A stretch of DNA of 56,872 nucleotides from Deltaproteobacteria bacterium. Lineage in GTDB: Bacteria; Desulfobacterota; Syntrophia; Syntrophales; JAIPED01. Made by a program: the position numbers and the translations under genes. Location of the stretch: assembly GCA_021737325.1 (NCBI GenBank), contig JAIPED010000003.1:1-56872 (forward strand). The letters are read 5' to 3'. The notes under the pieces are model-generated. The model made no database searches, had not been told where the DNA came from, and saw only the letters and a program-made list of their open reading frames with translations. Positions 1-11,712 of this stretch are shown here, in pieces; position 1 is the first letter of the stretch; the number at the start of each line of letters is the position of its first letter.

Positions 1-653
1 AAATCCTGGGCAATCTCACTTGCTCGTTTGTTGAGCGCCGCCATTTGTTTTATCGCATTGGCAATAACGGCTTCTGGAGCGGCTTCTCCCTTGATGGCGG
101 TGGAGACTATCCCCATACCCAGAGGCTTGGTCAAAAGCAACGCATCGCCAGCCCTAGCTCCCCGATTAAAAAAGATGCGCGATGGGGCAACAACACCAGT
201 AACGGAAAGGCCATATTTAATCTCGTCATCTTCAACGCTGTGGCCACCAACGAGGAGCGCCCCCGCCTCCCGAATTTTTTCCATCCCACCTTTTAAAATC
301 GCCCGGAAGATATCATTTTCCATCTTGCCGATGGGAAAGCAGACTATGTTCATGGCTGTTAGTGGCTTTCCTCCCATAGCGTAAATATCGCTTAGGGCAT
401 TAGCAACGGCAATCTGTCCAAAAGCGAAGGGGTCATCAACAATAGGCGTAAAAAAATCAAGCGTTTGGATAAGTGCGGTTTCATCGTTAAGCAGATACAC
501 TCCTGCATCCTCGCTATTTTCAAAAGAAGTTAAAAGCCGTTCGTCGGCAAGCAAGGGCAGATCTTTTAGGATATCAGAGAGGTCCCCCGGACCTATCTTA
601 CAGGCTCAACCAGCGGCTTTGACGCACTGTGTTAGGCGGATATTGTTGGCCAT
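1..653 (-). CDS. selD: Selenide, water dikinase (selenophosphate synthetase), selenocysteine-containing; 3' end runs off the window
   Basis: Manual translation from ATG 653: MANNIRLTQCVKAAG-(TGA 608-606)-ACKIGPGDL...SEDAGVY...QTLDFFTPIVDDPFAFGQIAVANALSDIYAMGGKP...GGHSVEDDEIKYGL...LTKPLGMG. The frame stays open to base 1. RBS GGGAGG lies upstream. Absent from the ORF track. Confidence 0.95.
576..598 (-). promoter_or_regulatory. Putative bacterial SECIS hairpin downstream of the in-frame UGA
   Basis: mRNA AGAU-AGGUCC-GGG-GGACCU-CUCU. The core stem begins about 12 nt after the UGA and has a G-rich apical loop. Confidence 0.65.
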
Positions 654-848
654 TTCTTCGCACCTCCCTGTGCTATGTCCCATAACCTACAAGCAAAGTT
701 GGGTCAATGAGAGAAGCATTTCCTGTCAAGATTAAATTCATTGCCCCGTTTTATGATACGCGATTCCTCCTAAAAATTTTAAAAACATTCTTGCCCACTT
801 AAGAAAAATGACAGAAGGTCAAGCCTTCTGGGAGAGAGGGCAAAGAAC

Positions 849-1805
849 ATGACCTACGGCAAAGCAAATAGGGCAACCGCGAGGGTTGCCCCTACATATG
901 CCGATATTCCCGGTTTTTGTGCGTCGGTTTCCATCAATCGGGTGCGCGGACTGGACTATGTGCTCACACTGGGCAGCTATGTCGGACTTCCGGACGATGA
1001 GGACGAACAAAAAGCTATCGCCTCGGTGCTCTCCAGCCTTGATGACAAAATCGACCTGCTCCACCGCCAAAACAAAACCCTCGAAGCCATGGCCGAAACC
1101 CTCTTCCGCCAGTGGTTTATTGAGAATGCGCCTCAACCCTCACCCCAGCCCTCTCCCAGCGGGAGAGGGTGTAAAAAAGAAGCTCAGGAGGATTGGGAGG
1201 AGGGCAAGGTTAAAGATATTGTCGATGTACTCTCTGGATTTGCATTTAAAAGTTCAGTCTTCGTAGAAGCCGGTACATATCGATTGATAACTATCAAGGC
1301 TGTGCAGGATGGTTATCTTGAAGTCAATGGCGCTGTCCAAATTGAGGATGTGCCTTCTCAGACCCCTGGCTACTGCTTCCTAGAACATGGAGACATTCTA
1401 CTTTCGCTCACAGGGAATGTTGGACGATGTTGCATGGTTGATGCTGAAAAGTTGCTGCTTAATCAGCGTGTTGCAAAACTTCGGGCTAAAAATGAGCGTG
1501 ATTGGGCGTTTGTGTATGTAATGTTTCGACAGCAGTCGATGCGGCAAACCCTTGAGGAAACGGGGAAAGGAACTGCTCAATCGAATTTGAGCCCGGTTGA
1601 GATGAGTAACATGCCGATGCAAGTACCTTGGTCAGAGTTGTTGGCGAAGTTCAGCCTCAAAACAACACCAATGCTGAAAAAAGTACTCACGAATAAGATA
1701 CAGATACAAAATCTAGAAAAACTCCGCGACACCCTTCTCCCCAAACTCATGAGCGGTGAAGTGAGGGTCGATATTAACATCGAGCCGAAGGGTGAATGCG
1801 CATGA
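849..1805 (+). CDS. hsdS: Chimeric ORF: HsdM C-terminal remnant fused to half a type I HsdS (conserved region + one TRD + C-terminal conserved region)
   Basis: YADIPGFCASV...LDYVLTLGSYVGLPDDED resembles the HsdM tail. EQKAIASVLSSLDDKIDLLHRQNKTLEAMAETLFRQWF and LEKLRDTLLPKLMSGEVRV are HsdS conserved helices. Only one TRD is present. Confidence 0.85.
   Translation: MTYGKANRATARVAPTYADIPGFCASVSINRVRGLDYVLTLGSYVGLPDDEDEQKAIASVLSSLDDKIDLLHRQNKTLEAMAETLFRQWFIENAPQPSPQPSPSGRGCKKEAQEDWEEGKVKDIVDVLSGFAFKSSVFVEAGTYRLITIKAVQDGYLEVNGAVQIEDVPSQTPGYCFLEHGDILLSLTGNVGRCCMVDAEKLLLNQRVAKLRAKNERDWAFVYVMFRQQSMRQTLEETGKGTAQSNLSPVEMSNMPMQVPWSELLAKFSLKTTPMLKKVLTNKIQIQNLEKLRDTLLPKLMSGEVRVDINIEPKGECA
871..895 (-). 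repeat. GTAG-type REP palindrome in frame in the HsdM remnant
   Basis: GGGCAACC-GCGAG-GGTTGCCC-CTAC. Same arms as 4447-4472 inside the RAYT gene. Confidence 0.8.
1137..1169 (+). repeat. Palindromic repeat CCCTCACCCCAGCCCTCTCCCAGCGGGAGAGGG inserted in frame in hsdS
   Basis: Hairpin CCCTCTCCC-AGC-GGGAGAGGG, translated as PSPQPSPSGRG, between the conserved helix and the TRD. Confidence 0.75.
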
Positions 1806-3556
1806 GTAAGCTGCACTCTATTTCGATAACCAACATAAAAGGGATAGGCGCACAAAAGACATTCGAATTAGGCTTGTTTCCGAATAAGCCGAGCTTGCTC
1901 GTGGCACCAAATGGTTTCGGAAAAAGTTCATTGGCTTGCGCGTTCAACTCAATGAATGGCAATAGAATCGATTTGGCCGAGAAAGACTACCATGAGAAAA
2001 ATGCTGCGAATCTTCCGATAATTTCGATAAATTTTGACGGCACACAGTATGATGCAACGAATGCGACGAATGCCATCGCCGGTGCCTTTGACGTCTTCGT
2101 AATCAACAGTCAGGTTGTGGCTAAGGCTACAAAGCGGAATATGGGACGGTTCACTACTGTGTCGGCAAGTTTAGATGTCACCTCTGTCGTGTTGATTGAC
2201 AGAATTCCTGCCAAAGTGGATTTTGCATATAGTCACCCGCAGTGTAAAAGGACGTTCGGCACTAATGGCAAAATTTTGCCCGACGCGACACCTTTGCTCA
2301 ACAATTTGGAGTTTCTTGCCCGTTTGGAAGCCGGGACTGACTTTCACAATTTCGGGCTGGTAAGGGCGTACAAGCTTCTTGTCGATCCAGTGATTGATAA
2401 TATTAATCGGCAGCCGGGCTCAGGCGACCAGATTAAGGTGTGGATGAGCACAAATGTGATGACCGATCTCGAAGCGATCGCTCCATTGAAAGCGTTGAAA
2501 ACAGTCATTAAGGAAGTGACGGGAAACGATGATGTCGAATCCTATTTGCTTGCGTGGCAGTTGGCACGGGAATCTCAAGATGCAAACTTTAGGGCCGCGT
2601 TGGAGTACAAGCTGTATCTGCGAGAGAAGAAGTTTTACGACGAACTTTTAAAATCCTTTGACACTACACGGCACAACATTTGCACCTCCGAAGACAAAAT
2701 TGATAAAACGAAAAAAAAGCTTGTGGTCAATTTCCCGCGTGCAGATGAAATATCGAATGGACAAAGAGATGTGCTCACTTTTGTGGCTCAATTGCATCGA
2801 GCTAGAAGAAAGCTGAAGAAACCCAACTGTATTTTGATTATCGACGAAATCTTTGATTATTTGGATGATGCCAATCTTGTTGCCTTTCAATATTACATCA
2901 CCCAATTCATAGAAGAGTTCAAAGCGCAAACCAGGAATCTTTATCCGCTTCTGCTAACGCACTTGGATCCTGCGTACTTTCGGCATTTCTGTTTCAATCG
3001 ACACAAATTGCAGGTCAGATATTTGAACAAGGATGCGGCTGCAACTCAGTCGGCCTGCTTGAGCCTTGTTCGGAAGCGGGATGATCCTTCCATTGAAGCC
3101 GCTGTGAGCGCACACCATTTTCACTTCAACCCAGCGGAGCAGGACTTACAGGCTGAGTTTGGTGCTTTGGCGCTGAATGTAGCGTGGGGCAAGTCGCATG
3201 AGTTTTATGTCTATGTAAAGGGTGAGGCGGAGAAATATCTCCGGATCCAGCAATATGATGCGATTGCGGTATTGCTTGCTGTCAGGATTTGTATCGAAAC
3301 TTTAGCGTACAATAAGTTGCCTGCTGATGCAAAGCAGGGGTTCATTGATACACACAAAACCGCAAGTAAACTCGATTATTGTGAAGAACATGGCGTCGCC
3401 ATACCAGAAACATACTACTTGTTAGGTCTGATTTACAACGACGACTTGCACTGGAGGGAGGGCCGGGATTATGACACCCCTTTAAGGGCGAAGCTTGAAA
3501 ACCTGACGATTAGAAATATGATGAAGGAGGTTTTGAGTGAAAAGAGTACAAGTTAA
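1802..3556 (+). CDS. ABC/SMC-type ATPase with C-terminal HEPN-like region (PrrC/RloC-like, AAA_13-like) putative defence nuclease
   Basis: Walker A APNGFGKS, signature ISNGQ, Walker B ILIIDE plus D-loop YLD, H-loop LLTH. C-terminal R-x3-E (RICIE) and N-x3-H (NDDLH). Sits between hsdS and hsdR, with an ATGA overlap on the hsdS stop. Confidence 0.7.
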   Translation: MSKLHSISITNIKGIGAQKTFELGLFPNKPSLLVAPNGFGKSSLACAFNSMNGNRIDLAEKDYHEKNAANLPIISINFDGTQYDATNATNAIAGAFDVFVINSQVVAKATKRNMGRFTTVSASLDVTSVVLIDRIPAKVDFAYSHPQCKRTFGTNGKILPDATPLLNNLEFLARLEAGTDFHNFGLVRAYKLLVDPVIDNINRQPGSGDQIKVWMSTNVMTDLEAIAPLKALKTVIKEVTGNDDVESYLLAWQLARESQDANFRAALEYKLYLREKKFYDELLKSFDTTRHNICTSEDKIDKTKKKLVVNFPRADEISNGQRDVLTFVAQLHRARRKLKKPNCILIIDEIFDYLDDANLVAFQYYITQFIEEFKAQTRNLYPLLLTHLDPAYFRHFCFNRHKLQVRYLNKDAAATQSACLSLVRKRDDPSIEAAVSAHHFHFNPAEQDLQAEFGALALNVAWGKSHEFYVYVKGEAEKYLRIQQYDAIAVLLAVRICIETLAYNKLPADAKQGFIDTHKTASKLDYCEEHGVAIPETYYLLGLIYNDDLHWREGRDYDTPLRAKLENLTIRNMMKEVLSEKSTS

Positions 3557-3661
3557 GAGAAGTTTACGAGAAGACAGCGGAACGGATGTTTTGTAATTTG
3601 CTGATTATCAGAATCTTACTTCTCTTGATTATACTCGTGATTTCTGCGGTTTTAAGAGAAG
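3548..3661 (+). repeat. 114-bp non-coding element, copy A
   Basis: Ungapped alignment with 6612-6725 gives 96/114 identical by hand count. Contains TTAAGAGAA-like 9-mers in both orientations and a central CTGAT-T-ATCAG palindrome. Confidence 0.9.
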
Positions 3662-3684
3662 CTAGACAGGGAACGCACAGTCTT

Positions 3685-3840
3685 ATGAGCAAATTAATTA
3701 CCGAGTCCGCCATCGAAACCTTCGCCATCGAGCTGTTTGAAAAGCTCGGGTATCAGTATGTCTATGCTCCAGATATCGCGCCGGACAGCGTTACGCCCCT
3801 ACCCATAACCATATCCGGAGAAGTGCAGGTGGAAATATGA
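3685..3840 (+). pseudogene. Mini-ORF: hsdR 5' fragment fused to an hsdS 3'-end-like fragment
   Basis: MSKLITESAIETFAIELFEKLGYQYVYAPDIAPDS matches the HsdR start. The following TPLPITISGEVQVEI* parallels TLLPKLMSGEVRVDI of HsdS. The stop overlaps the next ATG. Confidence 0.85.
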
Positions 3841-4127
3841 GCAATAACCATCTCCCGGAAAAAGCTCAAAACTTCGTCATTTTCCAAACGGAAACGGGCA
3901 AAATTAACATAGAAGTCTTTTTTCACAACGAGACCCTTTGGCTTACACAAAAAAAGATTGCAGAACTGTTTGAAAAAGACCGCAGTGTAATCACAAAGCA
4001 CCTGAAAAATATTTTTAACGAAGAAGAATTGGATGAAAAAGTGGTATGTGTAAATTTTGCACACACCACTCAACACGGCGCCATCAAAGGCAAAACCCAG
4101 CGGGGACGGCATGAAACACAATCCTGA
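3837..4127 (+). pseudogene. RhuM-family (virulence protein) N-terminal fragment
   Basis: FVIFQTETG...ETLWLTQKKIAELFEKDRSVITKHLKNIFNEEEL...FAHTTQHGAIKGKTQ is typical of the RhuM N-terminus. Truncated at 96 aa. Confidence 0.75.
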
Positions 4128-4752
4128 CATTCTTCATCGCCGTTCGATTCGTTTGTGTGGTTACGATTATTCACAGGCGGGGTTGTATTTTGTGACGATT
4201 TGCACCCAGGGGCGGCACCATCTGTTCGGCGATATTGTGGATGGCACGGTTCAATTCACCGACGCTGGAGAAATGGTGCGCACCGTATGGGAGGGAATCC
4301 CATCCCATTATCCGGGTGTCGAAATCGATCAATTTGTCGTCATGCCCAACCATTTTCATGGGATCGCGGTCATCGTAGGGGCAGGCCCCCGTGCCTGCCT
4401 TGATGGCGATGGGCAACCGGAACAAACAGGGCAACCACATCCAATCGGGCAACCACGGGGGGTTGCCCCTACGGGGTATTCATTGCCGGACATGGTCCAT
4501 CGGTTCAAAACCATGACCACAAAAAAATATGTGGATGGGGTTAAATTACATGGCTGGCAACGATTCGACGGCAAATTGTGGCAACGCAATTATTGGGAAC
4601 ATATTGTCCGTAACAAACAGGAATTGTTTCGCATCCGGCAGTACATCGAAACCAACCCCGTCCAATGGGAAAACGACAAATTGAACGGCGGTTCGGGCAA
4701 TCAGGTTTTGGAACCGCAAACAGAATACGGCTGGGAATCATGGATGGTATGA
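4111..4752 (+). mobile_element. REP-associated tyrosine (Y1/HUH) transposase, RAYT
   Basis: RRSIRL.GYDYSQAGLYFVTICT, HUH motif MPNHFHGI, WQRNYWEHIVR, YIETNP..W. Internal REPs are translated as VGAGPRAC and GQPRGVAPT. Confidence 0.9.
4375..4472. repeat. Inverted REP pair inside the RAYT gene
   Basis: GTAGGGGCAGGCCCCCGTGCCTGCC (4375-4399) and GGGCAACC-N6-GGTTGCCCCTAC (4447-4472). GGGCAACC recurs at 4411, 4429 and 4447 (18-bp period). Confidence 0.85.
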
Positions 4753-4955
4753 ACATCACCGAATCCGCTATCGAAACCTTTGCCATCGAGTTGTTCGAGA
4801 AGCTCGGGTATCAGTACATCTATGCCCCGGACATCGCACCAGACAGCGAAACGCCAGAGCGCGAACGCTTCGAAGATGTGTTGCTGCTGGAGCGGCTGCA
4901 CTTTGCGGATTCCGGACTAACTGGACAACGAAAATACGATGGAGTTGGACGATGA
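4749..4955 (+). pseudogene. Mini-ORF: second hsdR 5' fragment
   Basis: MNITESAIETFAIELFEKLGYQYIYAPDIAPDSETPERERFEDVLLLERL is near-identical to the start of 6748..9987. ATGA overlaps at both ends. Confidence 0.9.
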
Positions 4956-6601
4956 ACGCATACGACAAACTGAAAGCTTTGCTTGAATTGCCCGCTGAGA
5001 CCGAAACGGTCGAGTTCAAGGAGGCGAAGAACGGCTACGATTTCACGAAGCTGGGACGCTATTTTTCGGCGCTGAGCAACGAGGCAAATCTGAACCGTCA
5101 TTCGAGCGCATGGCTGGTTTTCGGCGTGAACAACGCACGCCAGGTGGTGGGGACGAAGTACCGTAGTAACCGGCCTGATCTGGACCATCTGAAGGAAGAA
5201 ATCGCCAACAAGATCAGTCATCGTATTACATTTATTGAAATCCATGAGGTGCCGCACGAAAACGGGCGCGTTGTTCTGTTTCAGATTCCTGCCGCGCCCA
5301 AGGGGTTGCCGATTGCTTTTGAAGGGCACTATTACGGGCGCGACGGCGAAGCGCTGTCGCCGCTGAATCTGGAAGAGATCGAGCGCATCCGTGCACAGGC
5401 GACGCAGGAGGACTGGAGCGCCGCCGTGGTGTTCGGTGCCGGGCTGGACGATTTGGATGCGGAAGCGCTGGCGGTGGCGCGGAAGAATTTCAAGAACAAA
5501 CTTCCGGATAAAGCTAGTGAGGTGGATGGCTGGGACGATATGACATTTCTGAACAAGGCGAAGCTGACCATCAAGGGGCAGATTACGCGTACGGCGTTAT
5601 TGCTTCTTGGTAAAGAAGAGGCGGAGCATTTCCTGTTACCAGCGGATGCCAAGATCCGCTGGCTGTTGAAGGATCATCAGGGTAACGACCGCGATTATGC
5701 GCTGTTCGGCGTGCCGCTGCTATTGGCGGTGGACAAGGCGTACGCCAAAATCCGTAATCTGAAATATCGTTATATCCGCGAAGGAACATTGTTTCCGGAA
5801 GAGACAGATCAGTATGAACCGTATGCGCTTCGCGAGGCGCTGAATAATTGTATTGCCCATCAGGACTATACGCTGGCCGGACGAATCAATGTGGTTGAGC
5901 GCGAAGACAGTCTGACCTTTACCAATTTGGGGAGTTTTGTGCCGGGGGATGTTCAGCGTGTGGTGATGGAGGATGCACCCGAAGAGCATTACCGCAACCG
6001 GTTTCTGGCGACGGCGATGTTCAACCTGAAAATGGTGGATACGGCAGGCGGCGGTATCCGCAAGCTGTTTATGTTTCAGAAGCAGCGGTTTTTCCCGCTT
6101 CCCGACTATGATCTTTCTAATAATCGGGTTCAGGTTACGCTGACCGGAAAAGTGCTGGATATGGATTATGCGCGATTGCTGGCAGGTAATGGCGATCTGA
6201 CACTTCAGGAGATTATCGCCCTGGACAAAGTGCAGAAACGTAAAGCGTTGGATGCGGGAGAAGAAAAGCTGCTAAAGACCAAGGCTCTCGTCGAAGGGCG
6301 CAAGCCGAATTTCTACATTGCCAAATCCATTGCGCAAAATACGGGACAAAAGGCTTCCTACAGCAAGAACCGGGCGTTTAATAAGCAGTATTATCTCGAT
6401 CTGATCTGTAAGGCGGTTGGCGAGCACGGCACCATGTCCCGCAAGGATATTGACGAGCTTCTCTGGAATAAGTTGCCCGAATGGATGGGTGATAAGCAGA
6501 AGAGGGGGAAAGTCGGGAACCTCATCACTGAGTTGCGCAAGAATGAAATGATAGAAAACATTGGAACGATCAAATACCCGGAATGGGTTCTCTTAAAATG
6601 A
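4952..6601 (+). CDS. Schlafen/AlbA_2 domain + HATPase_c_4 (RecG-C-like) + winged-helix protein
   Basis: ETETVEFKE, SALSN, WLVFGV (Schlafen/AlbA_2). LREALNNCIAHQDY, NLGSF, YRNRFLA, MVDTAGGGI (HATPase_c_4). Confidence 0.85.
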   Translation: MNAYDKLKALLELPAETETVEFKEAKNGYDFTKLGRYFSALSNEANLNRHSSAWLVFGVNNARQVVGTKYRSNRPDLDHLKEEIANKISHRITFIEIHEVPHENGRVVLFQIPAAPKGLPIAFEGHYYGRDGEALSPLNLEEIERIRAQATQEDWSAAVVFGAGLDDLDAEALAVARKNFKNKLPDKASEVDGWDDMTFLNKAKLTIKGQITRTALLLLGKEEAEHFLLPADAKIRWLLKDHQGNDRDYALFGVPLLLAVDKAYAKIRNLKYRYIREGTLFPEETDQYEPYALREALNNCIAHQDYTLAGRINVVEREDSLTFTNLGSFVPGDVQRVVMEDAPEEHYRNRFLATAMFNLKMVDTAGGGIRKLFMFQKQRFFPLPDYDLSNNRVQVTLTGKVLDMDYARLLAGNGDLTLQEIIALDKVQKRKALDAGEEKLLKTKALVEGRKPNFYIAKSIAQNTGQKASYSKNRAFNKQYYLDLICKAVGEHGTMSRKDIDELLWNKLPEWMGDKQKRGKVGNLITELRKNEMIENIGTIKYPEWVLLK

Positions 6602-6611
6602 TGCCAAGCGC

Positions 6612-6725
6612 ACAAGTTAAGAGAAGTTTATGAGAAGGTAGCGGAACGGCTAATTTATAATATGTTGATTATCATAAACTTACTTCTCTTAATTTCACTC
6701 ATGAGTTTTGCTGTTTTAAGAGAAG
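6612..6725 (+). repeat. 114-bp non-coding element, copy B
   Basis: Paralog of 3548-3661. Perfect IHF consensus AATCAACATATTA on the minus strand at 6658-6670. Confidence 0.9.
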
Positions 6726-6747
6726 AGAGGTAGGGGAAACGCAGTCT

Positions 6748-9700
6748 ATGAATAAATTAATCACCGAATCAGCCATCGAAACCTTCGCCATCGAGCTATT
6801 TGAAAAGCTCGGCTATCAGTATATCTATGCCCCGGATATCGCGCCGGACAGCGAAATGCCGGAGCGCGAACGCTTTGAGGATGTGTTGCTGCTGGAGCGG
6901 TTGCGCTCGGCGGTGGCGCGTATCAACCCGTCCATTCCCGCCGATGTTCGTGAGGAGGCGATCAAACAGGTTCAGCGGCTGAACTCGCCGGAACTCATCG
7001 TCAACAACGAAGCCTTCCACCGCATGTTGACCGAGGGCGTCAAGGTCGTCTATCAGGACAGAGGGAATGAACGCGGCGATTTGGTATGGCTGATGGATTT
7101 TGCCAAGCCCGAGAATAACGAGTTCGTCGTGGCGAATCAGTTTACGGTGATTGGCCACCACACAAATCAGGGACACCAGAGCAATCGCCCGGATGTTGTC
7201 TTGTTCGTCAACGGCCTGCCACTGGTGGTGATTGAACTCAAGAACGCCGCCGATGAAAACGCCACGATCAAATCCGCCTACCAACAATTGCAGACCTACA
7301 AAGAGGTAATCCCCGCCTTATTTACCTACAACGGCATGTTGGTGATCTCCGATGGCCTGGAGGCCAAAGTGGGATCACTGTCAGCGGGCCTCTCCCGATT
7401 CATGGCGTGGAAAACAGCGGACGGCAAGCTGGAGGCATCACGGCTGATCAGCCAGTTGGAAACCTTGATCAAGGGCATGTTGAACAAGGCGACTCTGCTG
7501 GATTTGCTGCGCCATTTCATCGTGTTTGAAAAGTCGAAAAGAGAAGACCCGGCAACGGGGGTTATCAGCATCAGCATGTTGAAGAAGCTTGCGGCGTATC
7601 ACCAGTATTATGCGGTCAACGCGGCGGTGGCTTCCACCTTGCGGGCGGCACGAGAAGCGCCACGGATGGCGGCGGAAACGCCAGAGGGTTACGGCTTGGC
7701 GAGTGTGAAAAACCAGCCACCGGGGGATCGCAAGGCCGGTGTGGTGTGGCACACGCAGGGTAGCGGTAAATCGCTGTCAATGCTCTTTTACACCGGCAAG
7801 ATCGTGCTGGCGCTGGATAATCCTACGATTATCATAATCACCGACCGCAACGACCTGGATGATCAATTGTTCGATACTTTTGCCGCCTGTAACCAGTTGT
7901 TGCGGCAGGAGCCGATGCAAGTGGATGACCGCAAAGAGCTGAAGCGGCTATTAAGAGTAGCGTCCGGCGGGGTGATTTTCACCACCATTCAGAAATTTCA
8001 ACCGGAAGAAGGCAATATCTATGAGGAATTGACCGACCGCCGCAATGTGGTGGTGATCGCCGATGAGGCGCATCGCACCCAGTACGGCTTCAAGGCAAAA
8101 ACCGTGGACAAGAAAGATGCTCAAGGCAATATTACCGGCAAACGGGTAGTTTACGGTTTTGCTAAATATCTGCGCGATGCCCTGCCGAACGCAACCTACC
8201 TTGGTTTTACCGGCACGCCCATCGAAAAAACCGATGTCAACACCCCGGCGGTGTTCGGCAATTATGTGGATGTGTACGACATTGCCCAGGCGGTGGAAGA
8301 CGGCGCCACCAAGAAGATTTATTACGAAAGCCGCCTAGCCCGAGTTTCGCTCAGCGACGAGGGCAAGAAGCTTATTGCCGAATTGGACGAGGAACTGGAA
8401 CAGGGCGAGTTGACCGAGACCCAGAAGGCCAAGGCCAAATGGACAAAGATGGAGGCATTGGTCGGCGCAAAGCAGCGCATTCGAAATGTGGCGCAGGACA
8501 TCGTGGAACATTTTGAGAAACGCCAGGAAGTTTTTGCGGGCAAGGCCATGATTGTGGTCATGTCGCGGAGGATTGCGGCAGAGTTGTATGAACAGATCAT
8601 CAAACTGAAACCAGAATGGCATTCACTCGACCTGACCAAGGGCGTCATCAAGGTGGTAATAACGGCGGCCTCTGCAGATGGCCCGAAACTGGCAGGGCAT
8701 CACACCAGCAAAGAACAACGCAGGACGATTGCCGAGCGCATGAAAAACCCCGATAACGAGTTAAAGTTGGTTATCGTGCGCGACATGTGGCTCACTGGTT
8801 TTGATGCACCCTGTATGCATACGCTATACATTGACAAGCCCATGAAGGGCCACAACCTGATGCAGGCTATCGCAAGGGTGAATCGCGTTTACGGTGATAA
8901 GCCTGCGGGTTTGGTGGTGGACTATCTGGGCATTGCGGCTGACCTCAAGCAGGCCTTGTCGTTCTATGCTGATGCCGGTGGCAAGGGCGACCCCATGCTG
9001 GCCCAGGAGCAGGCCGTAAAAATGATGCAGGAAAAGATTGAGGTGGTGACCAGTATGTATCACGGCTTCCCTTACGAGGATTACTTCGATGCCGACACTT
9101 CCGGAAAACTCGCCATGATCCTGGCGGCTGAGGAACATATCCTCGGCTTGGAGGATGGCAAGAAACGCTATATCGACCAAGTTACCGCCTTGTCGCAGGC
9201 ATTCGCCATTGCCATTCCCCACGAGCAGGCCATGGATGTGAAGGATGAAATCGCCTTCTTCCAGGCGGTGAAGGCGCGGCTGGCGAAGTTCGACAGCACG
9301 GGCACGGGGAGAAGCAATGAGGAAATCGAATCAACCATTCGGCAGGTAATCGACAAAGCGCTGGTCTCAGAGCAGGTCATTGATGTGTTCGACGCTGCCG
9401 GAATCAAGAAGCCCGATATTTCGATTCTTTCCGAAGAGTTTTTGCTGGAGCTGAAGAACAAGGAGCATAAAAACATCTCGCTCGAAGTGCTCAAAAAGTT
9501 GCTCAACGACGAAATCAAAGCGCGGGCCAAGAAGAATCTGGTACAAAGCAGAACTTTAATGGAAATGTTGCAAAGTGCCATCAAACGGTATCACGCCAAG
9601 GTACTCACAGCAGCAGAGGTGATGGATGAGCTGATCAACATCAGTAAGGAAATCGTTAAGTCCGACAAGCAAGCCAAAGAGATGGGCATGAGCGACTATG

Positions 9701-9987
9701 AGTACGCCTTCTATACCGCCGTGGCCAGCAACGATAGCGCCAGAGAACTAATGCAACAAGACAAGTTGCGCGAGCTTGCCGTTGTGCTTTTTGAGAGAGT
9801 AAAAGCCAATGCCTCCATTGATTGGACAATCAAGGAAAGCGTAAAGGCAAAACTCAAAGTCATTGTAAAAAGAACCTTGAGAGAATTTGGCTATCCGCCT
9901 GATATGCAGAAGCTGGCAACCGAGACGGTGCTTAAGCAGGCGGAGATGCTGGCGAATGAGTTAACCAGAAACACAACCACGGGATGA
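6748..9987 (+). CDS. hsdR: Type I restriction endonuclease subunit R
   Basis: RPDVVLFVNGLPLVVIELKN (PD-ExK), WHTQGSGKS, DEAHRTQY, FTGTP, MWLTGFDAP, QAIARVNR. Full length, 1079 aa. Confidence 0.97.
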   Translation: MNKLITESAIETFAIELFEKLGYQYIYAPDIAPDSEMPERERFEDVLLLERLRSAVARINPSIPADVREEAIKQVQRLNSPELIVNNEAFHRMLTEGVKVVYQDRGNERGDLVWLMDFAKPENNEFVVANQFTVIGHHTNQGHQSNRPDVVLFVNGLPLVVIELKNAADENATIKSAYQQLQTYKEVIPALFTYNGMLVISDGLEAKVGSLSAGLSRFMAWKTADGKLEASRLISQLETLIKGMLNKATLLDLLRHFIVFEKSKREDPATGVISISMLKKLAAYHQYYAVNAAVASTLRAAREAPRMAAETPEGYGLASVKNQPPGDRKAGVVWHTQGSGKSLSMLFYTGKIVLALDNPTIIIITDRNDLDDQLFDTFAACNQLLRQEPMQVDDRKELKRLLRVASGGVIFTTIQKFQPEEGNIYEELTDRRNVVVIADEAHRTQYGFKAKTVDKKDAQGNITGKRVVYGFAKYLRDALPNATYLGFTGTPIEKTDVNTPAVFGNYVDVYDIAQAVEDGATKKIYYESRLARVSLSDEGKKLIAELDEELEQGELTETQKAKAKWTKMEALVGAKQRIRNVAQDIVEHFEKRQEVFAGKAMIVVMSRRIAAELYEQIIKLKPEWHSLDLTKGVIKVVITAASADGPKLAGHHTSKEQRRTIAERMKNPDNELKLVIVRDMWLTGFDAPCMHTLYIDKPMKGHNLMQAIARVNRVYGDKPAGLVVDYLGIAADLKQALSFYADAGGKGDPMLAQEQAVKMMQEKIEVVTSMYHGFPYEDYFDADTSGKLAMILAAEEHILGLEDGKKRYIDQVTALSQAFAIAIPHEQAMDVKDEIAFFQAVKARLAKFDSTGTGRSNEEIESTIRQVIDKALVSEQVIDVFDAAGIKKPDISILSEEFLLELKNKEHKNISLEVLKKLLNDEIKARAKKNLVQSRTLMEMLQSAIKRYHAKVLTAAEVMDELINISKEIVKSDKQAKEMGMSDYEYAFYTAVASNDSARELMQQDKLRELAVVLFERVKANASIDWTIKESVKAKLKVIVKRTLREFGYPPDMQKLATETVLKQAEMLANELTRNTTTG

Positions 9988-10063
9988 TAAATGAGCTGTT
10001 CCCCCCACATATGGCGCGGTTGATGCGTGGCAAACGAGTTAGCAACAAGAAAGGATTGAAGCT

Positions 10064-10372
10064 ATGTATAAACCACTGGCAAACGATTGGATTGAAGAAA
10101 TGGTGGCAGGAGGAAAGCTTGAAGCCATGTCCACCCAAAAAAGGGAGCAGCTGGCGGAAGAGTATGCCATGATTATTGAAGAAACAATCGCCGCCGAGGC
10201 GCAAAAAACCCTCGCGACGATGGGCAAGGCTGACGAGTACGAGCGGATGAAGCTTTTTGACGGGCAGTATCTTAACAAATATCTAAACCAAACGATCCCT
10301 GCCTTTTTCTCTTTCAAGATGGAGGCGATCGCTTTGGCAAAAGAGATTATTCTTGCAAAGGGAAAGTCATGA
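10064..10372 (+). CDS. Small helical hypothetical protein
   Basis: 102-aa ORF with an RBS-like AAAGGA upstream and an ATGA overlap with the next gene. No family recognised with confidence. Confidence 0.65.
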   Translation: MYKPLANDWIEEMVAGGKLEAMSTQKREQLAEEYAMIIEETIAAEAQKTLATMGKADEYERMKLFDGQYLNKYLNQTIPAFFSFKMEAIALAKEIILAKGKS

Positions 10373-11712
10373 AATTTTTGGCACATAGCCACCCCGATGA
10401 ACCCCTCCAACTGGTTGGCGAACCGCAGGTGGCGGTGGGAATTAGCGAAAAAGCAAGGGCCGTTACGGGAAGGCTACAAGGAACCTTTGTCGTCGCTGGA
10501 AAGACCATCAGCGGTGATTTTAGCGCGGAGATTATTGAGGGGGGAAATGTCCTTTTGCGCAATCCGCGGATAACTATTCGTGCGCCGCGGATCGAATTGG
10601 AAAATCATCAAGGAGGGATTTTTGCGCTTGATGATGTCATTATTGGCAAGGATTTTCATTGGGAGCGGCGAGAAAAACAGGAATTTCGTGGTTCATTGGT
10701 GCTTCAGGCAACGACGGAAGGAATCAGCGTTATCAACGAGATCGGTTTGGAGGAATACCTTAGCGTGGTGATTGCTTCTGAGATGAGCGCCGCGGCGCCG
10801 GTGGAGTTTCTGAAGGCCCAAGCGATTGTCGCAAGAAGTTGGTCTCTTGCTCGCCTGCTTAGCGAGGAAAAGGACGAATATCGGCAGGAAATCCCCCCTA
10901 CAGAGGTTGTTTGCTGGTATGGTCGGGGAAGGCATAACGATTTTGATTTCTGTGCCGATGATCACTGCCAACGCTACCATGGCATTACTCGGGAAACGGC
11001 AACACACAACCTTGCCGCAACCAGACAAACCCGTGGATTATTTTTGGTTAGCGGCACTCAGGTATGTGATGCCCGCTATCACAAGGCATGCGGCGGTCTT
11101 ACGGAACATTTCTCTGTGGCTTGGGAGGATAATGGTGCGCCTTATCTGGTGCCCATTGTCGATTCTCTTGCAAAACAACCCTTTATCACCACTGAAGAAT
11201 CCGCCCACGCTTGGTTATGCAACTCCCCCAACGCGTATTGCCGTGTTTATGATGAAAAATTGCTGGCAACGATTCTCCCTTCGTTTGATAGGGAAACCGC
11301 CGATTTTTTCCGCTGGCAGGTAACATATCGGCGCGAAGAGTTAGAAGCAATCATCCAGGAGAAGGCAAAGAGGCATCTGGGAGAGCTGAAAGAAATTATC
11401 GCGCTCCAGCGGGGAGCTTCAGGAAGGATCTATCGCCTTCGTCTGGTTGGCTCACGGGAGGAAATGACTATCGGGAAGGAACTGGAAATCCGTCGAGTGC
11501 TTGCAATAAATCACCTCTACAGTAGCGCGTTCGTCGTGGAAAAACGGGGTGGAGGAGTCTTTCCTGACGAAATTGTCCTTCACGGTGGCGGTTGGGGGCA
11601 CGGTGTTGGGCCCTGTCAAATTGGTGCCGCCAACATGGCTCTCCAAGGATTTAGCTGTGAGCAGATACTCGGGCACTATTTCCCGCAGACGAATTTGGAG
11701 CAACTTTATTGA
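10369..11712 (+). CDS. SpoIID/LytB domain protein
   Basis: LEEYLSVVIASEM, LKAQAIVARS, CADDHCQRYHG, YHKACGG, GGGWGHGVGPCQIGA, ILGHYFP. Confidence 0.92.
   Translation: MKFLAHSHPDEPLQLVGEPQVAVGISEKARAVTGRLQGTFVVAGKTISGDFSAEIIEGGNVLLRNPRITIRAPRIELENHQGGIFALDDVIIGKDFHWERREKQEFRGSLVLQATTEGISVINEIGLEEYLSVVIASEMSAAAPVEFLKAQAIVARSWSLARLLSEEKDEYRQEIPPTEVVCWYGRGRHNDFDFCADDHCQRYHGITRETATHNLAATRQTRGLFLVSGTQVCDARYHKACGGLTEHFSVAWEDNGAPYLVPIVDSLAKQPFITTEESAHAWLCNSPNAYCRVYDEKLLATILPSFDRETADFFRWQVTYRREELEAIIQEKAKRHLGELKEIIALQRGASGRIYRLRLVGSREEMTIGKELEIRRVLAINHLYSSAFVVEKRGGGVFPDEIVLHGGGWGHGVGPCQIGAANMALQGFSCEQILGHYFPQTNLEQLY

Follow-up and report, generated by a model that had tools for sequence, protein, structure and literature searches.

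A type I restriction-modification locus in which remnants of hsdS and hsdR lie between stacked cargo genes

The locus described here occupies positions 849-9987 of a stretch of 56,872 nucleotides (nt) from a Deltaproteobacteria bacterium (GenBank assembly GCA_021737325.1, contig JAIPED010000003.1), hereafter the window, which is one complete contig (C46) of a metagenome-assembled genome (MAG) of 1.49 Mb in 72 contigs that is 89% complete. All genes from 849 to 9987 lie on the + strand, and the row is made up of pieces of a type I restriction-modification (RM) operon and of four cargo genes, all of them between hsdS and hsdR and in the orientation of these genes, as is expected of embedded genes. 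Short pieces of the hsdR start and the hsdS end, here called scars, recur between the cargo genes. The features are listed below in the order in which they follow one another, where L039 and L040 denote related loci from a Competibacteraceae and a Dissulfurispiraceae MAG, respectively.

897-1007, + strand: hsdM remnant of 37 codons, equivalent to residues 440-476 of a 515-amino-acid (aa) HsdM; 68% identity by tblastn with the HsdM of L040
1004-1805, + strand: half hsdS, consisting of the central conserved region, one target recognition domain (TRD) and the C-terminal end, within an open reading frame (ORF) at 849-1805
1796-3556, + strand: cargo 1, an ATPase of 586 aa, ABC/SMC-type with a helical C-terminal domain and weak SMC_N/AAA_21 matches
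3542-3684, + strand: spacer copy 1, a pre-hsdR spacer 80% identical to 6606-6747
3685-3840, + strand: scar ORF 1 of 51 codons, hsdR codons 1-37 in frame with the final 15 hsdS codons; profile positions 7-113
3837-4103, + strand: cargo 2, a RhuM fragment, codons 1-89 of about 350; PADLOC PDC-S05 at E 2.5e-31; the ORF continues to 4127
4101-4113, + strand: hsdS 3' vestige of about 13 nt, which arrived with RAYT (junction J2) and is collinear with the hsdS end and RAYT start of L039
4111-4752, + strand: cargo 3, a REP-associated tyrosine transposase (RAYT) with a Y1_Tnp domain; 76% aa identity to the RAYT of L039
4749-4955, + strand: scar ORF 2 of 68 codons, hsdR codons 1 to about 52 followed by 43 further nt; profile positions 9-166
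4952-6601, + strand: cargo 4, Slfn, 549 aa, with SLFN_AlbA_2 and HATPase_c_4 (Pfam)
6602-6747, + strand: spacer copy 2, between Slfn and hsdR, collinear with the spacers of loci L119/L121
6748-9987, + strand: intact hsdR, 1079 aa, with every HsdR Pfam domain; REase_I at 1242 bits

The hsdR 5' end occurs three times, with starts at 3685, 4749 and, in the intact gene, 6748, as had been noted in an initial annotation made from the letters alone, which also remarked on the separate synonymous changes in each copy. Copy 1 (3542-3790, that is, 142 nt of upstream spacer and 37 codons from the ATG at 3685) matches 6606-6853 with 84.3% identity over 249 nt (E 7.6e-72), and copy 2 (4755-4908, with its ATG at 4749) matches 6760-6913 with 87.0% identity over 154 nt (E 2.0e-47); the same blastn comparison, of 501-10100 against the whole MAG, returned nothing resembling these repeats elsewhere in the MAG. 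Codon counts agree with the annotation as well: synonymous and non-synonymous changes number 15 and 3 between copy 2 and the intact gene, 12 and 2 between copies 1 and 2, and 6 and 3 between copy 1 and the intact gene. This predominance of synonymous differences fits a recent severing of the fragments from alleles that had been functional. The second marker of the annotation, an hsdS-like 3' end that occurs twice, was likewise recovered. DNA profiles built from related loci (186 nt for the hsdR 5' end and about 150 nt for the hsdS 3' end) place the first at 1630-1775; the second, at 3795-3840 (TPLPITISGEVQVEI), is too short and too diverged for the profile, which misses it, and is supported by the collinearity of 3817-4101 with the hsdS-end/RhuM-start region of L040 at 87% identity. 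The vestige of about 13 nt at 4101-4113 is a further trace of the same gene end.

Four joints lie between these pieces. At J0 (about 3542) the ATPase ORF runs five codons beyond the usual end of its family, so that its last five codons and stop fall within spacer copy 1. At J1 (about 3794-3800) homology to hsdR extends to 3797 and homology to the hsdS end begins at about 3788, leaving an imperfect patch of CCGGACAGCG versus CCGCGACACC. RhuM homology ends at J2 (about 4101), where the next 13 nt match the final bases of the L039 hsdS with its ATGA overlap onto RAYT, and the joint shares 2 nt. At J3 (4908) hsdR homology ends and 43 nt follow, the last 20 or so of which resemble the stretch before Slfn in L119. 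The units are thus better read, from the alignments, as four rather than three, with one junction inside a cargo gene (RhuM) instead of inside hsdR; what the initial annotation had taken for a single cargo unit, a RhuM fragment with RAYT, does contain both genes, which are really two units joined inside RhuM. Scar ORF 2 has an HSDR_N Pfam match, and neither scar ORF has a family match beyond HSDR_N.

The RM genes that frame the array are in a different state from one another. The intact genes of the row are those for hsdR, the ATPase, RAYT and Slfn, and RhuM is truncated. The HSDR_N, SWI2_SNF2/ResIII, T1R_D3-like and T1RH-like_C domains of the hsdR product, with a TIGR00348 match of 598 bits, identify it as a type I HsdR. 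The hsdM remnant, which is also matched by the hsdM 3' parts of L039 and L040 (blastn), shares the single ORF at 849-1805 with the half hsdS. The latter encodes one Methylase_S domain, is 68% identical to residues 169-407 of the L040 HsdS and lacks the region equivalent to the L040 TRD1, leaving one TRD in place of the two of a full HsdS. No hsdM of the same family was found in the MAG (89% complete), where the best other hsdM, on contig C32, is 28% identical. Half-size HsdS proteins can work as dimers, but not without HsdM. With hsdM lost and hsdS halved, the RM module in the window is itself probably dead, and the placing of the array inside a type I RM operon by the initial annotation was an overstatement to that extent; its observation that an intact hsdR is kept is correct, and does not imply a working restriction enzyme. 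The same MAG has a second, unrelated type I RM locus (L001, C32:1-5286), also with embedded genes, in the order hsdM, 369-aa ORF, hsdS, 281-aa ORF and, beginning at the contig end, an hsdR-like ORF.

The four cargo genes belong to different families, several with labels that bear on defence (PDC-S05 for the RhuM fragment, weak AbiLi, AriA and mad8 matches for the ATPase, and SLFN). The ATPase start overlaps the hsdS end, and its gene belongs to a family with 2061 homologues at E <= 1e-5, each of about 580 aa and none of them named. A predicted structure (pLDDT 87.8), whose top fold matches are the Rad50, SMC and PtuA heads, supports a Rad50/SMC-like ATPase head, in keeping with the ATPase part of the "ATPase-HEPN" label given at first. 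The HEPN part was not confirmed: residues 401-586 had no family match at E <= 5, and of the residues invariant in the C-terminal domain (R428, H443, R497, E501, H552 and D558), R497 and H552 lie 55 residues apart, outside the Rx4-6H spacing of HEPN. A PDB sequence search with the family profile gave nothing below E 0.66, the PADLOC models gave no PrrC match at E <= 0.01 (the best were mad8, AriA and AbiLi at about 1e-5), and no relatives were found in viral contigs. Three plasmid homologues, 31% identical, are standalone genes beside TIR-domain genes or a methyltransferase/helicase pair. The RhuM fragment is 87.6% identical in aa sequence to residues 1-89 of the L040 RhuM. RAYT scores 62.5 bits against NF047646 (REP_Tyr_transpos), under the cut-off of 80, and its ORF holds an in-frame, GC-rich palindromic insert at 4374-4473, the arms of which (4374-4399/4448-4473) are 85% complementary. 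In at least five contigs of sequencing run X4, 47-50 nt of this palindrome are replaced by 8-14 other letters, which points to a hypervariable hairpin insert.

The array rests on a contig assembled from short reads. Concatenation of alternative strain alleles of one locus would account for repeated hsdR starts in a window that is a short-read MAG contig, and the related arrays are all metagenome assemblies too. The Logan assembly of run X1, produced by a second assembler, nevertheless covers 8-6591 in a single contig with 0 differences; X1 is probably the source sample, hence not independent data. A run from another study (X2) provides a contig over 4811-5194, again with 0 differences, that crosses J3, the hsdR'/Slfn junction, exactly; X2 has no cover over about 6401-10000 with both flanks covered, which is not readable as absence of hsdR. 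The repeats are merely 84-87% identical and leave few shared assembly words, so that an assembly error is unlikely; the junctions yield open ORFs coupled start to start, and dozens of independent assemblies show the same architecture. An assembly artefact, which the initial annotation had named as a threat to its reading, is accordingly extremely improbable. Contig joints in the runs (1760->8059 in X1, several in X4) are short-sided, probably reflect the conserved hsd genes of other organisms and were not used. The MAG has no close relatives among 60 genomes of the same order (best hsdR 53% identical), so a comparison of strains is not possible.

Relatives at greater distance are numerous. With the first 120 HsdR residues as query, a search of one genome per species gave 233 relatives, the best 80 of which (L039-L118, set 1) come from many bacterial phyla and from archaea and are 70-91% identical over those 120 aa. 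Among them and in a metagenome scan with Slfn, three of the four cargo units of the window proved collinear with single-cargo loci in other phyla, the gene junctions being the same, as the initial annotation had proposed should be looked for by BLAST. L040 has the order hsdM-hsdS-RhuM(350 aa)-hsdR with overlapping gene ends, and its hsdR is 87.7% identical to that of the window over 3217 nt. L039 has hsdS-RAYT-hsdR and is 86% identical to 4100-4908 straight across the RAYT/hsdR boundary; the hsdR start of copy 2, in scar ORF 2, is 92.2% identical to the hsdR of L039 versus 86-87% to the resident hsdR. L119 and L121 carry Slfn-spacer-hsdR collinear with 4952-9584 at 72%. The Slfn scan found 293 relatives; among the best 80, this RM context surrounds 25, for the most part in the order hsdS-Slfn-spacer-hsdR, and hsdS-Slfn-hsdR loci number about 20.

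Over the full length of hsdR, DNA identity to the gene of the window is 81-88% in L039-L044 and 72-74% in the metagenome loci, so that identities of 72-88% over about 3.2 kb (L039-L044, L119-L132) span Competibacteraceae, Dissulfurispiraceae, a cyanobacterium and Nitrospirae, and HsdR N-termini are 70-91% identical in Methanosarcinales and in anaerobic methanotrophic (ANME) archaea. This suggests one type I RM family that may have spread recently across phyla and between domains, and long near-identical stretches of hsdR shared between loci are what a homologous anchor needs. A comparison of the hsdR N-terminus with plasmids gave matches below 60% identity only and so provides no test in finished replicons. 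In L039, 4947-6694 holds a 135-aa and then a 447-aa ORF between hsdM and hsdS, and the second appears by eye to have a nucleotidyltransferase-like N-terminus and an hsdS C-terminus at its end; the two may be a toxin-antitoxin-type pair in the other operon gap, fused to half an hsdS.

These counterparts bear directly on a plainer account, in which the gap was tandemly duplicated within one lineage and then diverged, with no import and no continuing role for the scars. A duplication with one end point in the 3' end of hsdS and the other in the 5' end of hsdR produces just such an hsdR'/hsdS' junction, and the locus is visibly decaying, with hsdM lost and RhuM truncated. The cargo genes between the repeats are mutually unrelated, however, every unit has its match in another foreign single-cargo locus, copy 2 resembles the hsdR of L039 more than the resident gene, and GC content differs from unit to unit (43-55%), which together make purely local decay improbable; duplication followed by allelic replacement is part of the explanation favoured here. 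The proposal of the initial annotation, that segments from several related RM loci were stacked with the flanks of their donors, is borne out by the junctions of L040, L039 and L119-L121 and by the affinity of copy 2 to L039, and falls short for the ATPase, which has no counterpart.

Scars of the same kind are widespread in this RM family. Extra hsdR-5' pieces lie upstream of an intact hsdR in 20/80 set-1 loci, three more have extra hsdS-3' pieces only, and extra hsdR pieces occur in 7/25 of the Slfn loci in RM context. Four of seven regions fetched from an archaeal order, in which 75 of 201 sampled genomes match a 60-residue query, are stacked arrays (L213-L216). Multi-unit arrays thus exist in other genomes, as the first reading of the window had anticipated. 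In the 66 loci where the hsdS end is near-complete and the hsdR start is of the intact type, the gap holds cargo in 61 and remnants in 20; gaps with cargo measure 319-7758 nt, with a median of 3.0 kb where remnants are present versus 1.6 kb where they are not. Pfam matches among 120 gap ORFs include RhuM, RAYT, Slfn, Gabija-like AAA_15/TOPRIM plus UvrD pairs, AbiEi/AbiEii, MNT-HepT and Abi_C, and further reverse transcriptases, GmrSD, ABC-3C components, HerA, and PD-(D/E)XK and Mrr nucleases, and by these predicted functions the hsdS-hsdR gap is a defence slot. RhuM is the commonest cargo, RhuM-like sequence lying upstream of hsdR in 45/80 loci compared with 12/80 for RAYT. L213 (G487:C7), L216 (G488:C69) and L072 have two or three RhuM genes or fragments in a row with hsdS-end remnants between them, and stacking and truncation seem to affect RhuM more often than any other unit. 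Outside the main locus, two Desulfobacteraceae genomes have short hsdR-N-terminus fragments (31-37 residues, 68-75% identity to the query; G455:C349:21366-22685, G456:C29:17295-17390 and G456:C40:380555-380647), which may be orphan scars in other loci.

The ends of these pieces differ in a regular way. All hsdR pieces that run from the start begin at profile position 2-16 and end at positions 43 to 181, whereas all hsdS pieces reach the end of the gene and start at positions 34 to 117; short internal hsdR pieces (positions 40-82) are few (L067, L110, L114), and full-length tblastn found no scars longer than about 60 codons. Such variable breakpoints argue against a site-specific enzyme, and they weigh on the possibility of a dedicated cassette system, integron-like or RAYT-driven, in which the hsdR 5' end would contain a defined site where units are inserted by a site-specific or HUH enzyme. 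That possibility draws on the RAYT in the array, on RAYT genes that abut hsdR in other loci and are present in 12/80, on REP-like palindromes at 869-893 and inside RAYT, and on the common direction of all units. Against it, the 1-10 kb region has no integrase or recombinase, only L048 of the 20 scar-bearing set-1 loci also has RAYT, J1, J2 and J3 have no REP hairpin, and junctions without a common core, together with stacking without RAYT or other recombinases, are largely what is seen here; a dedicated system is therefore quite unlikely. A scan for genes and Pfam families found neither a tRNA gene nor an integrase around the locus in the window, and in 1-11 kb no ORF or Pfam match for an integrase or recombinase, RAYT being the sole DNA-processing enzyme there, which agrees with the integrase-free array of the initial annotation. 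A phase-variable hsdS shufflon was considered and rejected, the repeats in the locus being all direct and no recombinase being present.

One junction shows how scars may have a second life. An in-frame fusion, in which hsdR position 180 is followed by the final 110 nt of hsdS, is base-identical in five copies in three genomes, three of them in L090 (an ANME-1 MAG), one in L097 (Methanophagales) and one in L093 (Desulfobacteraceae), and it precedes differing cargo, namely a gene with a DEAD-box helicase, RhuM, and GmrSD. The hsdR' parts of the five copies are of two allelic types, and scar 3 of L090 differs from the resident hsdR start at 19/159 nt compared with 47/159 from scar 1. An identical junction before differing cargo, combined with mosaic hsdR' parts, suggests that scars were reused as homology arms; the L090 pattern is the one to be expected if a scar already in place had crossed over, by homology, with the start of an intact hsdR, and arrays could thus grow or be reshuffled by ordinary homologous recombination after the first illegitimate event. 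The gain and loss of cargo through the repeats, which the initial annotation had proposed, is an inference for which this five-copy junction and the mosaic hsdR' are the best evidence.

The scars also appear to be fitted into the reading of the row. Scar ORF 1 ends with a stop that overlaps the RhuM ATG (ATGA at 3837), and the ATG of scar ORF 2 overlaps the RAYT stop while its own stop overlaps the Slfn ATG, again as ATGA at both ends, giving ATGA overlaps at the gene boundaries 3837, 4749 and 4952. Elsewhere, the start codon is kept in nearly all scars, and the scar ORF ends between -4 and +14 nt from the next ORF (>=60 aa) in 14/24 from-start scars, both window scars included, and in 5/8 of a second batch, nine of the 14 and three of the five with an exact ATGA overlap; the scars in L054, L059, L094 and L095 have an ATGA ending ahead of a degraded RhuM start. 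Since the scars are open as short ORFs with stops that overlap the next start codon, the row still reads as one translationally coupled operon. The plain reading of these overlaps is that a former hsdR initiation region may serve as leader for the gene inserted behind it, and selection would have favoured the coupling; the case for selection on the scar reading frame itself is only suggestive. Promoter and terminator scans of the locus scored no better than shuffles, and no Rfam match was found in 1-10500.

Scars might alternatively have been maintained as useful small proteins of 51-116 aa (an HsdR N-terminus with an HsdS C-terminus), which might modulate the RM complex, for instance, and would then be more than leaders. 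The scar ORFs are mostly intact with their start codons kept, and in the five-copy junction class the hsdS-derived part has a ratio of non-synonymous to synonymous substitution rates (dN/dS) of 0.09-0.26 with dS up to 0.77. This low dN/dS could come from selection on the small ORF, or equally from crossovers that import alleles from functional hsdS genes, which would be expected to give the same values. Scar lengths and fusion points vary widely, moreover, the scars of L042, L097, L122 and L125 are frameshifted or lack a start, and no family match other than HSDR_N was found among the scar ORFs, which leaves a small-protein function very improbable.

Taken with the architecture of related loci, these observations are best explained, with good but not full confidence, by a type I RM operon at 849-9987 whose hsdS-hsdR gap was filled stepwise by integrase-free recombination with sister operons that bore other cargo, and an expandable cassette array is plausible, with comparative support. 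In each step two allelic type I RM operons would recombine without an integrase, by a crossover in truly homologous sequence on one side (hsdR, which is conserved, or the 3' end of hsdS) and an illegitimate join on the other. The trace of such a step would be a few final codons of the donor hsdS, preceded directly by what used to be the hsdR start or by an earlier cargo gene cut short. The first junction may have formed by homology-facilitated illegitimate recombination, or by tandem duplication and subsequent allelic replacement; once a scar exists it could serve as a homology arm, and units would then be stacked, swapped and lost by ordinary homologous recombination. The end state of such a history in the window would be a decayed locus in which hsdM was lost and hsdS halved, hsdR and three cargo genes remained intact and RhuM was truncated.

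Several observations pull the other way. Junctions J1 and J2 are bridged in X1 only; no recombination event, deletion variant or circle was observed, in run data that consist of contigs and are blind to rare variants; and the microhomology at the junctions is slight (2-5 nt). The three breakpoints of the window recur in no other locus examined, and an hsdS-ATPase-hsdR locus was found in 0/160 loci (tblastn, two sets of 80) and in 0/400 other genomes of the phylum. In-frame hsdR'-hsdS' junctions make up 5/8 classes in a grouping of the author's own, which is not significantly more than one third (binomial P ~0.09). The loci compared were chosen by similarity and are not a random sample, many of their contigs are cut short, and L094/L095, L110/L114 and L125/L126 are near-duplicates. 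Scar-bearing relatives are all MAG or metagenome contigs, two isolate-derived set-1 loci (L102 and L068) being scar-free, and a closed genome of 4.56 Mb (L212) has a RhuM fragment beside RhuM with a truncated hsdR and no hsdR scar.

Parts of this arrangement have been described in other systems. Payne, Hughes, Fineran and Jackson (Payne et al., 2024; bioRxiv 10.1101/2024.01.29.577857) surveyed the embedding of defence genes in operons of the type I RM, BREX, DISARM and Hma systems, with embedded genes co-oriented in 96.7% of cases and their origin left open ("genomic sink") in the sections on embedding. The cargo of the window resembles theirs in being accessory genes between hsd genes and in the same orientation, the RhuM fragment matches their candidate PDC-S05, and much of the gap cargo in the related loci is known or candidate defence; the gene-end remnants, the stacked units and the recombination route proposed for the window are not described in the same sections (Payne et al., 2024). 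Another embedded gene, PrrC, lies in a type IC locus, according to the part of the account consulted here (PMC12707154), and the GmrSD-like pair TgvAB is embedded in the type I RM cluster of Vibrio cholerae VPI-2, where it is a defence module nested in a working operon and forms one unit with no flanking remnants reported in the portion seen (PMC11411939); L090 has a GmrSD gene in the same slot. A "unit of evolution spanning two adjacent genes", described from tandem paralogues in Staphylococcus aureus, similarly consists of the 3' part of one ORF, a spacer and the 5' part of the next, exchanged among paralogous lipoprotein genes, in contrast to the unrelated cargo in an RM operon found here (PMC2568036, in the section concerned). 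A full-text literature search, which did not cover supplements, found no description of hsdR or hsdS remnants flanking embedded genes or of stacked units.

The slot itself is known to host accessory genes in type I systems. EcoprrI has the gene order hsdM-hsdS-prrC-hsdR, and cargo 1 occupies the same slot as an ABC-type ATPase with a C-terminal helical domain; its invariant R-x3-E...H may resemble the catalytic residues of the anticodon nuclease PrrC, a likeness taken as a lead only. Unlike PrrC, cargo 1 has no PADLOC PrrC match at the threshold given above, and EcoprrI has a single cargo and is not known to have scars. Integron cassette arrays share with the window co-directional, mostly promoterless units that are stacked with repeated sequence between them, and differ in that here there are no integrase and no attC-type sites, the repeats being fragments of the flanking genes with variable ends. 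Homology-facilitated illegitimate recombination was reportedly described by de Vries and Wackernagel in 2002, and later by others, in laboratory crosses of naturally transformable bacteria. One homologous anchor with one illegitimate joint would fit the junction anatomy of the window, and the 72-88% identity of hsdR over about 3.2 kb between phyla provides the long anchor; the junction microhomology here is weak. To our knowledge, this process has not been described as building defence-gene arrays.

The spacers before hsdR have a structure of their own. Spacer copy 1 contains the inverted repeat AAGAGAAGT/ACTTCTCTT with arms 54 nt apart, and spacer copy 2 the inverted repeat TTAAGAGAAGT, also with arms 54 nt apart and equalled by 0/200 shuffles. 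Slfn-or-ATPase/hsdR spacers in the window and in L119, L120, L122, L131, L143 and L150 have two or three direct copies of a motif plus an inverted copy, with an arm gap of 35-59 nt in the best-supported spacers and a motif that is locus-specific (AAGAGAAGT, TAAGAGAAG, ATTTAAAAGAG, TTTACGAAA, TACGAAAAGG); the best inverted repeat was equalled by <=2.5% of 200 shuffles in 7/15 distinct spacers. One possible role of the motif is that of an operator, or of a hairpin, which changes together with the protein that binds it. RNA folding exceeded shuffles for spacer copy 1 (z -2.8) and not for copy 2 (z +0.14), and RNAalifold gave no consensus over nine spacers, in an alignment that was out of register. 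The remaining feature lies at the left edge of the locus:

869-893, no strand assigned: REP-like palindrome, a terminator-like hairpin at the left edge of the hsd remnant

The MAG has 7-19 occurrences of its arm motifs, and the palindrome marks the left truncation point of the hsd locus, from which position an involvement in the loss of hsdM is possible. The locus is flanked upstream by an AIR-synthase-type gene on the opposite strand and downstream by a SpoIID-family gene.

How defence genes enter RM, BREX and similar operons is an open question, and the remnants at this locus are a direct record of such events: they show which sequences were joined, and indicate that the conserved gene ends of the operon acted as anchors and that units from different phyla can be stacked and later re-used. 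The hsdR or hsdS fragments in the gap offer a cheap search key for new embedded defence genes and for dating their arrival. On balance the initial annotation was right in its observations and its core interpretation is supported. More tentatively, and with somewhat less than even confidence, the hsdS 3' end and the hsdR 5' end may be universal homology arms, so that this type I RM operon would act as an integrase-free platform on which bacteria and archaea collect, stack and exchange defence genes, with scars kept as portable linkers and coupled leader ORFs; if true, this would supply a concrete mechanism for the embedding of defence genes.

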